A stretch of DNA of 64,000 bases from Limnohabitans sp. (GTDB lineage Bacteria; Pseudomonadota; Gammaproteobacteria; Burkholderiales; Burkholderiaceae_C). A program made the position numbers and the translations under genes. The notes under the pieces were generated by a model. It was given only the letters and a program-made list of their open reading frames with translations. It made no database searches and was not told the origin of the DNA. Of this stretch, positions 2,868 to 3,263 are shown one piece after another (the first letter of the stretch is position 1; every line of letters starts with the position of its first letter). The DNA lies in the NCBI GenBank assembly GCA_044233865.1, contig JBIIJK010000001.1, positions 38,465-102,464 on the forward strand, read 5' to 3'.

Positions 2868-3263
2868 ATGCAAGAATGCAATATCGAACTCACACGCCAA
2901 GTTCATGGCGGCGGATTTTGGGATTTTTTGAAATTTGAATCAGGCACCTCCAATGGTGCGAGAGAAGACGGCAATGCTTTGGGCGCAGGTTGCGGCACCG
3001 TTAAAAGTGATGCCTACGTGCCCGACATGATGTTTGGCATCGATGTGTCGCAAGCTTGCTTTCAGCACGACCAAAGTTACTCAACGTGTGGTTTCAGCAG
3101 GCGCACCGCCGATACCGACCTGTCCAACAACATCCTAAATGACTGCAAGGTACAAGGCGGCAACGCTTTGACTTGCAATGTCATTGCGGGTGTTTACGGT
3201 GTCGGCGTTGCCTTGTTGGGTGCCAGCGCTTTCAACCAAGCGCAGGCGCAAAGTTGTAATTGA
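2868..3263 (+). CDS. small Cys-rich protein with prokaryotic/fungal secreted phospholipase A2-like motifs
   Basis: A good RBS (AAGGAaaaacaaATG) precedes the start, and an in-frame stop lies 18 nt upstream. A Gly-rich loop LGAGCG lies about 25 aa before ACFQHDQSY (the C-x2-HD-x2-Y catalytic motif). This is followed by D-x2-L-x2-N-I-x2-C, then C-N-x2-A-x2-Y-x6-L-G. Order and spacing match my recollection of Streptomyces violaceoruber PLA2 (CARHDFGY...IDSAFYEDMKRVC...ACNSTAWTYYQAVKIFG). Confidence 0.55.
   Translation: MQECNIELTRQVHGGGFWDFLKFESGTSNGAREDGNALGAGCGTVKSDAYVPDMMFGIDVSQACFQHDQSYSTCGFSRRTADTDLSNNILNDCKVQGGNALTCNVIAGVYGVGVALLGASAFNQAQAQSCN

Follow-up and report, generated by a model that had tools for sequence, protein, structure and literature searches.

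What would a small phospholipase-like protein that lacks a Sec signal be made for, when its gene lies directly ahead of one for a periplasmic protein in the housekeeping part of a bacterial chromosome? This question is raised by a stretch of 64 kb from Limnohabitans sp. (contig JBIIJK010000001.1, positions 38,465 to 102,464), called the window throughout, in which a 131-residue protein (“the toxin”, after the role proposed here) and a 206-residue protein (“the partner”) are encoded side by side (Table 1). Limnohabitans, of the Comamonadaceae, is a bacterial genus common in lake plankton. The answer to which we give somewhat more credence than doubt is that the two genes form a chromosomal toxin-immunity module, consisting of a class-II-microcin-like phospholipase A2 (PLA2) bacteriocin and a periplasmic immunity protein.

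The phospholipase A2 domain

Homology of the toxin to the fold of the secreted PLA2s (sPLA2s) is established. A profile of its close family matches the Streptomyces violaceoruber PLA2 in the PDB (1FAZ) at E 1.9e-4, and a wide profile of 35 sequences retrieves 4AUP (1.1e-8), 1FAZ (1.4e-8), 8K1W (2e-8) and 7YGK (1.9e-7), with nothing further at E <= 1. The AlphaFold (AF2) model computed from the wider alignment reaches a predicted local distance difference test (pLDDT) value of 75, and of 85-92 in its three-helix core; the top four Foldseek matches of this model in the PDB are again microbial secreted PLA2s (4AUP_B, 4AUP_A, 7YGK and 8K1W; probability 0.92-1.0, template modelling (TM) score 0.42-0.52), and the fifth has a probability of 0.44. 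In Pfam, the window protein matches only PLA2G12 (PF06951, E 4e-4) and Phospholip_A2_3 (PF09056, E 6.5e-3). These two are matched by 19/35 and 18/35 members of the family, respectively, the sole other family being RHS, in one member. A search of 5.8 billion proteins returned 55 clusters at 53-94% identity, nearly all of them 131-134 residues long. The best match of the toxin among the PHROGs, which gave only families of unknown function, is phrog_6098 (E 8.9e-5), and the PADLOC defence library holds no match for the proteins of the module.

The domain comprises a GxGCG loop (residues 39-43), the dyad His67-Asp68 (encoded by nucleotides 3066-3071), Tyr71 and Asp82, and its six conserved Cys are at 42, 64, 74, 93, 103 and 130. 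Invariant in an alignment of 22 of the 55 clusters are C42, C64, H67, D68, Y71, C74, D82, C93, C103 and C130; the same holds across 35 sequences for C64, H67, D68 and D82, and in a 24-sequence alignment for Y71. The core motif C..HD..Y..C (C-x2-H-D-x2-Y) is kept in 70/70 distinct clade proteins, which were recovered from 91 related loci. Because these motifs are invariant in 22 to 70 homologues and the profile matches solved PLA2s at E 1e-8, the pattern stands above chance. Catalytic activity of the toxin is likely.

Much of this had been anticipated in a preliminary description, for which a model had read the DNA without database searches. The open reading frame (ORF) that it reported, with ATG start, ribosome-binding site and an in-frame stop 18 nt upstream (a TGA at 2850-2852), is plainly readable, and three of its motifs are found in the translation: ALGAGCG (residues 37-43), ACFQHDQSY (63-71) and a C-terminal CN-x2-A-x2-Y-x6-LG (103-118). 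The order of a fourth, D-x2-L-x2-N-I-x2-C, is correct and its last spacing is not, as the sequence reads D82-x2-L-x2-N-I-x3-C93, and the C-x8-C given next is in fact C93-x9-C103. The kinship with PLA2s that it proposed from motif order and spacing is borne out by the profile and structure matches, as are its expectations that a structure search would lead to such enzymes and that homologues would retain the His-Asp motif.

With microbial sPLA2s of groups XIII/XIV (S. violaceoruber 1FAZ/1KP4, Tuber borchii 4AUP; PF09056) and animal group XII sPLA2s (PF06951), the toxin shares the all-alpha core, in which the C-x2-H-D-x2-Y helix is followed by two long helices, as well as the presence of disulfides; its stretch HDxxYxTCG...D...C is similar to group XII, PF06951 being the best Pfam match. 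However, the known sPLA2s are secreted via Sec and have no immunity partner, whereas the toxin has a predicted leader of the double-glycine type, and its loop reads GxGCG where the calcium loop would read DxC[ST]. The Cys residues are lost pairwise in relatives (42+64, 74+130 and 93+103, alignment A2), which suggests three disulfides, 42-64, 74-130 and 93-103. One relative, P0062, lacks all six Cys and retains His-Asp.

The same domain occurs as the tip of much larger proteins. In an exhaustive search of 1.84 billion representatives, the family profile matched 1595, and in many of these the domain (profile positions about 30-131) forms the extreme C-terminus of a protein of 700-2500 residues. 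The large carriers are RHS-repeat proteins with RHS core domains in Pfam, and RHS-fused relatives recovered with the profile pass the Pfam gathering threshold (P0162, 44.6; P0172, 33.3). One RHS carrier has the type VI secretion system (T6SS) genes tssF/tssG/tssA as neighbours, and the protein encoded after it has ankyrin repeats and a hydrophobic N-terminus; a second RHS-linked PLA2 is followed by a small membrane protein, so that in the cases examined RHS-linked PLA2 genes are likewise trailed by genes for envelope proteins. Some other representatives have Sec signals. The RHS-tip domain is the Tox-PLA2 of Zhang, Aravind et al. (2012), which was described on RHS and filamentous carriers trafficked by type II or type VI secretion, with no immunity protein listed, and for which a role in inter-bacterial conflict was proposed (PMC3482391). 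Of the two Tox-PLA2 motifs, DxC[ST] and CxxHxxxYxN (PMC3482391), CxxHxxxY is present in our family, followed by S-T instead of x-N, and the upstream loop reads GxGCG[TDS] instead of DxC[ST]. In contrast to the known carriers, the domain stands here in a protein of its own, of 131 residues, with a putative microcin-style leader and a specific family of periplasmic partners. A further carrier, P0153 (2530 residues), is teneurin-like, with Dictyostelium-type repeats, NHL, a YD shell and the same PLA2 domain at its C-terminal end; as a carrier of the toxin domain, it may be eukaryotic or eukaryote-like.

The predicted N-terminal leader and its counterparts beside C39 transporters

The N-terminus of the toxin is polar and carries no Sec-type signal peptide. 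Its first 15 residues, MQECNIELTRQVHGG, are predicted to be a leader that is cleaved after Gly15, or possibly after Gly16. The sequence agrees with the microcin signal pattern (<M..[KEQI]x[IL]x9G[GAS], Motif 2, for signals of 15-18 residues; PMC12219008) except for Cys4 at the [IL] position, and the pattern is fitted exactly by clade members such as MQTLDLEMTRHVQGG and by distant members such as MRTLELNEIAYVSGG. C39 peptidase domains read three hydrophobic knobs at positions -4, -7 and -12 (PMC6363468), and cleavage after Gly15 puts Val12 at -4, Thr at -7 and Cys4 at -12, giving two of the three. Within the clade, the conserved leader positions are V/I12 (67/69), G14 (65/69), G16 (63/69) and C4 (51/69). 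In the AlphaFold model, residues 1-19 are of low confidence (pLDDT <50 for the leader), with a short helix at 6-12.

The N-terminal 15 residues of standalone relatives of the toxin form a common block, from which a Gly/Ser-rich linker, 0 to about 100 residues long, leads to the PLA2 domain. The block occurs in a canonical form (MRTLELNEIAYVSGG, MRYLEAHELKFVVGG, MRDLSLAEVRIVAGG), comparable to the signal of MccV (MRTLTLNELDSVSGG; PMC12219008), in an MRICK-type form (MRICKIDRAEQIWGRGG, MKICSKEMAAIVFGAGG) and in a Limnohabitans-type form (MQECNIELTRQVHGGG, MHVCNIEELHLISGGG, MQNCSIAETQLVWGQG). The same 15-residue frame is found on the cargo of C39-transporter clusters, as MRICK...[VI]xGxG and MRTLELNE..VSGG.

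The genomic company of these relatives is consistent: all standalone relatives that can be placed on longer contigs lie in a cluster with a C39 ATP-binding cassette (ABC) transporter or a fusion protein, and not in a T6SS cluster. In a betaproteobacterial metagenome-assembled genome (MAG; locus L033), the gene for a CvaA-like fusion protein precedes three tandem pairs of toxin and partner along with a split orphan partner, after which come a small membrane protein and, last, a 737-residue Peptidase_C39 ABC transporter; the database names are CvaA and CvaB/MchF/RaxB, and the toxin leaders read MRTLELNE.AHVSGG. This microcin-type island (L033 6714-15166) sits between parA-like and parB-like genes near gidA/gidB. 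In locus L031, the toxin gene lies directly 3' of an HlyD-family gene. In locus L036, genes for two proteins with MRICK leader, the first Gly-rich and the second PLA2-like, are followed by those for a lipoprotein, for TraB/PrgY-like proteins, for a fusion protein and for a C39 domain, in this order. Its PLA2-like protein is 41% identical to the window domain (E 1e-31), and the C39 domain is at the N-terminus of the transporter (E 5e-24). Loci L038 and L040, whose transporters fall in the same clade, have the same MRICK...[VI]xGxG leader on different cargo, so the leader marks the cargo of this C39-transporter clade regardless of the mature domain.

Two further features of these clusters were observed. 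Proteins of the TraB/PrgY/GumN family with signal peptides recur beside MRICK-leader cargo (L036 8215-9192 and 11726-12739; L040 1062-2015) and may be a second kind of immunity protein or a processing factor. Many MRICK-leader cargo proteins have long Gly/Ser/Asp-rich tails ending in GGW, GGD or GGF (P0058-P0064, P0073; L036 7606-8130; L038 7895-8539; L040 120-905), which recall the Gly/Ser-rich C-termini of class IIb microcins.

The partner and the history of the module

The signal peptide of the partner comprises residues 1-33 (LVLGFGLFFSSGYA, followed by AE; it ends in SSGYA, ahead of AEFFVDKGH) and leaves a mature part of about 173 residues with an isoelectric point of 8. Its signal is a cleavable one of the Sec or lipoprotein kind, and the rest of the sequence has no membrane helices, so the partner is periplasmic and not membrane-spanning. 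Most orthologues have a lipobox (SSGC) at the end of the signal; in this species and in identical metagenome contigs, SSGYA is found instead (window 3272-3370). Since SSGYA replaces the lipobox, the window partner would be soluble in the periplasm and not a lipoprotein.

The lipoprotein that follows the PLA2-like cargo in L036 is a homologue of the partner (BLASTP, 29% identity over 160 residues, E 1e-16), and the one that follows P0061 in locus L032 shows, by eye, the same motifs. A BLASTP comparison of the window partner with that of L031 was not significant, and profile alignment with the L033 and L031 partners is collinear but weak (hhalign E 0.008, probability 5%). Profile searches of Pfam, NCBIfam and the PDB gave no match for the partner. 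Conserved, targeted to the envelope and encoded beside a putative membrane-lipid toxin, the partner is a candidate immunity protein, for which binding and protection would follow from this resemblance.

Table 1. Positions of the module and its parts in the 64-kb window.
Feature	Coordinates	Strand	Remarks
Small accessory ORF orf99	2549..2848	+	Stops 19 nt ahead of toxin gene
Ribosome-binding site AAGGA	2856-2860	+	7 nt ahead of toxin ATG; read from sequence
Pre-toxin gene, 131 aa, 13.8 kDa	2868..3263	+	ATG start; PLA2 fold plus N-terminal export leader (predicted)
Predicted double-glycine-type leader, residues 1-15 (MQECNIELTRQVHGG)	2868..2912	+	Clade conservation; common to C39-cluster cargo
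PLA2 (Tox-PLA2 / group XII-XIV-like) domain, residues 24-131	2937..3260	+	Alignments, PDB profile matches, model, Foldseek; portion matched in RHS C-termini
Candidate immunity protein, 206 aa	3272..3892	+	Begins 8 nt past toxin stop; signal peptide

The close family is present in 23 species-representative genomes, nearly all labelled Limnohabitans, Comamonadaceae or Burkholderiales (the exceptions being one MAG labelled Pseudomonadota only and one short contig labelled Singulisphaera); isolates that carry the module include MMS-10A-178 and Rim11. The site is constant: a DUF3717/DUF1289 gene, optionally orf99, the toxin, the partner and an M48 peptidase gene. When metagenomes were scanned with the flanking DUF3717 protein as query and only evaluable loci were counted, the toxin was present in 65/65 loci with DUF3717 identity >=85% and absent from 10/10 loci with identity <=84%, the sampled ones of which have a GC content of about 0.60. 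In the toxin-less loci, the flanking genes abut or enclose a gap of ~1 kb, which, where examined, contains a TerC gene. Because of this presence in all close and absence from all more distant loci, the module is best described as a clade-specific insertion that, to judge from these sequences, has been inherited vertically since.

The ratio of nonsynonymous to synonymous substitution rates (dN/dS) is 0.08-0.23 for the toxin and 0.10-0.29 for the partner, compared to 0.01-0.14 for flanking genes. Identity ranges over 56-95% for the toxin and 26-89% for the partner, and over 90-99% for the ASL and YaeQ flanks; where ASL and YaeQ hold 90-96%, the toxin drops to 56% and the partner to 26-45%. As judged from these comparisons, the module is maintained by purifying selection and diverges fast and in step. 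In one clade with a G-Q-G leader (MQxCSIAETQQVWGQG; L074, L092, L104 and about 15 further metagenome loci), the partner is 26-33% identical to the window type and the toxin about 53% or more. These values point to discrete toxin-immunity specificity groups. In the metagenome collection, 721 blocks contain the exact toxin protein, which suggests an abundant freshwater lineage as its source.

Ahead of the toxin gene, orf99 encodes 94-99 residues at a dN/dS of 0.6-1.35. The window clade, L021, L023, L044/45, L074, L092 and L104 all retain its frame, their indels being without exception in-frame, and many other lineages lack the ORF. Neither Pfam nor NCBIfam, PADLOC or PHROG gave a match. A non-coding nature, as a dN/dS of ~1 might suggest, was considered and rejected, because the frame is retained across divergent clades; the module may have in orf99 a third, fast-evolving component, e.g., a regulator, a chaperone or a cytoplasmic immunity protein. 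A scan of 2300-4100 for promoters and terminators gave nothing useful.

The GC content is 0.40-0.50 across 2200-4000 and 0.53 for the whole window, the remainder of which is housekeeping core chromosome adjoining dnaA/dnaN. The window contains no T6SS, contact-dependent inhibition (CDI), C39-peptidase transporter or fusion-protein genes; its sole ABC exporter (52612-54399) is without a C39 domain. With mnmE, yidC, dnaA (58744-60150) and dnaN (60309-61418) within 54403-61418, the window adjoins the replication origin. A topoisomerase-I-like ORF of 1013 residues (18623-21664, + strand) has a SWIB/MDM2 domain at its C-terminus and adjoins a gene for a SET-domain protein (17969-18592, - strand); SWIB/MDM2 and SET are chromatin-type domains, which are unusual in bacteria.

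The preliminary description had likewise placed the gene in a lower-GC patch of a core region, ahead of a gene for a signal-peptide protein and without T6SS or CDI delivery genes in the window, and in all these respects the survey agrees with it. Where it had called the protein leaderless, this holds for the Sec signal and not for the N-terminus as a whole, since residues 1-15 resemble a double-glycine export leader. The effector/immunity logic that it saw in the gene pair gains support from the RHS toxins tipped by the same domain and from the envelope-targeted partner that travels with the toxin in unrelated loci. Its alternative guess of an undescribed bacteriocin format fits best, the leader being common to the cargo of C39-transporter/fusion-protein clusters.

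Competing readings and the meaning of the module

In the scheme that we infer, from enzyme activity and target to cleavage site, immunity function and the existence of a C39-peptidase ABC transporter (PCAT) in this organism, the pre-toxin would consist of the 15-residue leader, a short linker and a 108-residue sPLA2-fold domain with the catalytic dyad His67-Asp68 and three probable disulfides. Synthesised with no Sec signal, it would presumably stay unfolded and inactive in the reducing, low-calcium cytoplasm. A PCAT, encoded elsewhere in the genome like a CvaA-like fusion protein and TolC, would recognise the leader, cut at the G14-G15-G16 motif and export the enzyme of ~12 kDa straight out of the cell. 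In a competitor, the toxin would reach the periplasm and hydrolyse membrane glycerophospholipids; in the producer, the co-transcribed partner would be sent to the periplasm by its Sec/lipoprotein signal and neutralise toxin that arrives from siblings or re-enters.

Class II microcins such as MccV (PMC12219008, PMC9746304) resemble this system in several respects: a pre-protein of <150 residues (the toxin, with 131, is within the size limit of <=150 given in PMC12219008), a 15-residue signal, here predicted, ending in Gly-Gly and an adjacent gene for immunity, here putative; moreover, relatives of the toxin are encoded between fusion-protein and C39 ABC transporter genes, and some have Gly/Ser-rich tails. 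However, known class II microcins are non-enzymatic peptides of 5-10 kDa with inner-membrane immunity, whereas an enzyme fold of 12 kDa is combined here with a periplasmic (lipo)protein, an M-Q/R-x-C...[VI]-x-G-x-G leader, no nearby transporter gene and fixation of the module in a clade.

A number of observations weigh against a microcin-like bacteriocin. As for the domain, the window protein scores below the gathering thresholds of both Pfam families (20.8 bits vs 34 for PF06951, 17.5 vs 29.4 for PF09056), so that the comparison with PF09056 proposed in the preliminary description succeeds for some family members and not for the window protein itself, and the Foldseek E-values are modest (0.06-0.2). 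As for the leader, it is non-canonical: position -12 is taken by Cys, where Leu/Ile would be canonical, and -7 by Thr/Ala; 13 clade members have G-Q-G and hence no strict Gly-Gly/Ala/Ser pair; and a loose 15-residue form of the pattern matches 4/946 ATG starts in the window, 3 of them besides the toxin. The pattern being so unspecific, the leader argument rests on the comparative data. As for export, no C39 transporter or fusion-protein gene lies within 10 kb of the module in the 23 genomes, as far as the contigs allow, and a search with the L038 transporter led to a Comamonadaceae clade with a Rhodoferax MAG as nearest named match (72%) and none labelled Limnohabitans; two NCBI matches to the transporter search come from assemblies outside the 23 module-bearing ones. 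Most bacteriocin loci vary between strains, whereas the module is fixed in its clade. Finally, the immunity proteins of class II microcins are usually located in the inner membrane (PMC12219008), and the partner here is periplasmic.

The alternative that survives best, though we regard it as unlikely, is a secreted or envelope phospholipase for the cell's own use or for use against eukaryotes (grazers, algae or a Daphnia host), which would serve lipid scavenging or anti-predator defence, with the partner as a self-protecting inhibitor or chaperone. Fixation, vertical inheritance (65/65) and purifying selection would suit such an enzyme better than a strain-variable bacteriocin; the closest relatives of solved structure are PLA2s secreted by fungi and actinobacteria, for which no antibacterial toxicity is known, and Tox-PLA2 relatives are found in eukaryote-directed contexts (PMC3482391). 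However, toxin and partner diverge far faster than their flanks, and the tandem toxin-partner pairs with an orphan partner fragment, formed by distant relatives in a microcin-type cluster, are a hallmark of antibacterial toxin-immunity arrays.

Somewhat less probable still is that a contact-dependent system, e.g., an Hcp-loaded T6SS, delivers the toxin as a small cargo effector, in which case immunity would be periplasmic and the N-terminal motif no export leader. Pairs of a small, signal-less effector and a periplasmic immunity lipoprotein are typical of T6SS (Tse/Tsi, Tle/Tli), which speaks for this possibility, as do the tipping of RHS proteins by the same domain, in one case beside T6SS genes, and the failure of transporter-homologue searches to find a C39 transporter in Limnohabitans. 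The likeness extends to Tle1-5/Tli, in which a phospholipid-degrading periplasmic toxin is paired with adjacent periplasmic or lipoprotein immunity, the two roles proposed here. Tle enzymes have alpha/beta-hydrolase (GxSxG) or phospholipase D (HxKxxxxD) folds, measure 60-100 kDa and are delivered by VgrG. In contrast, the toxin has a 12-kDa sPLA2 fold with a His-Asp motif and a predicted export leader, and neither the window nor the flanks contain any T6SS, VgrG, Hcp or PAAR gene. The conservation of its N-terminal 15 residues does not depend on the domain, and they recur on unrelated Gly-rich cargo beside C39 transporters, and the standalone relatives on longer contigs are all in C39-transporter/fusion-protein clusters; nothing supports delivery of the standalone protein by T6SS or CDI.

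Quite improbable is a PLA2-like fold that is not a lipase (a pseudoenzyme, a membrane-binding bacteriocin or an orphan relic without export route), which would accord with the relatives that lack all six Cys (P0062), with GxGCG standing where Streptomyces-type PLA2s have the Asp of their DxC[ST] calcium loop and with the lack of a detected transporter, but not with His-Asp, Tyr71 and Asp82 being (nearly) invariant over 22 to 70 sequences and distant relatives, nor with the low dN/dS of the toxin, which shows that the gene is maintained, or the conserved leader positions.

The Tox-PLA2 domain on the one hand, and the format of double-glycine leader and C39 transporter on the other, are each already known. 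A literature search did not find their combination, the G-x-G/Cys4 leader variant, the partner family or a fixed orphan location in a major freshwater genus; it returned no PLA2-type microcin or PLA2-type C39-transporter cargo, and nothing on Limnohabitans bacteriocins. Going beyond the assignment as a microcin-like bacteriocin, and more tentatively than that assignment itself, the toxin might be the first enzymatic (PLA2) class II microcin or C39 cargo: a 12-kDa lipase toxin, the leader of which is the variant M-[QR]-x-C...[VI]-x-G-x-G, exported in trans through a transporter whose gene lies elsewhere, with a new family of periplasmic lipoprotein immunity, fixed and co-diversifying in Limnohabitans and forming species-level compatibility groups in lake plankton.

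If the microcin-like reading is true, type I secretion of the microcin type would also deliver folded lipolytic enzymes and not just small pore-forming peptides, and Tox-PLA2, so far known on large RHS or filamentous carriers without immunity, would gain a standalone format and its first cognate immunity family. Pipelines for microcin mining would obtain a new leader variant to search with, and for Limnohabitans a concrete weapon of interference competition would have been identified.

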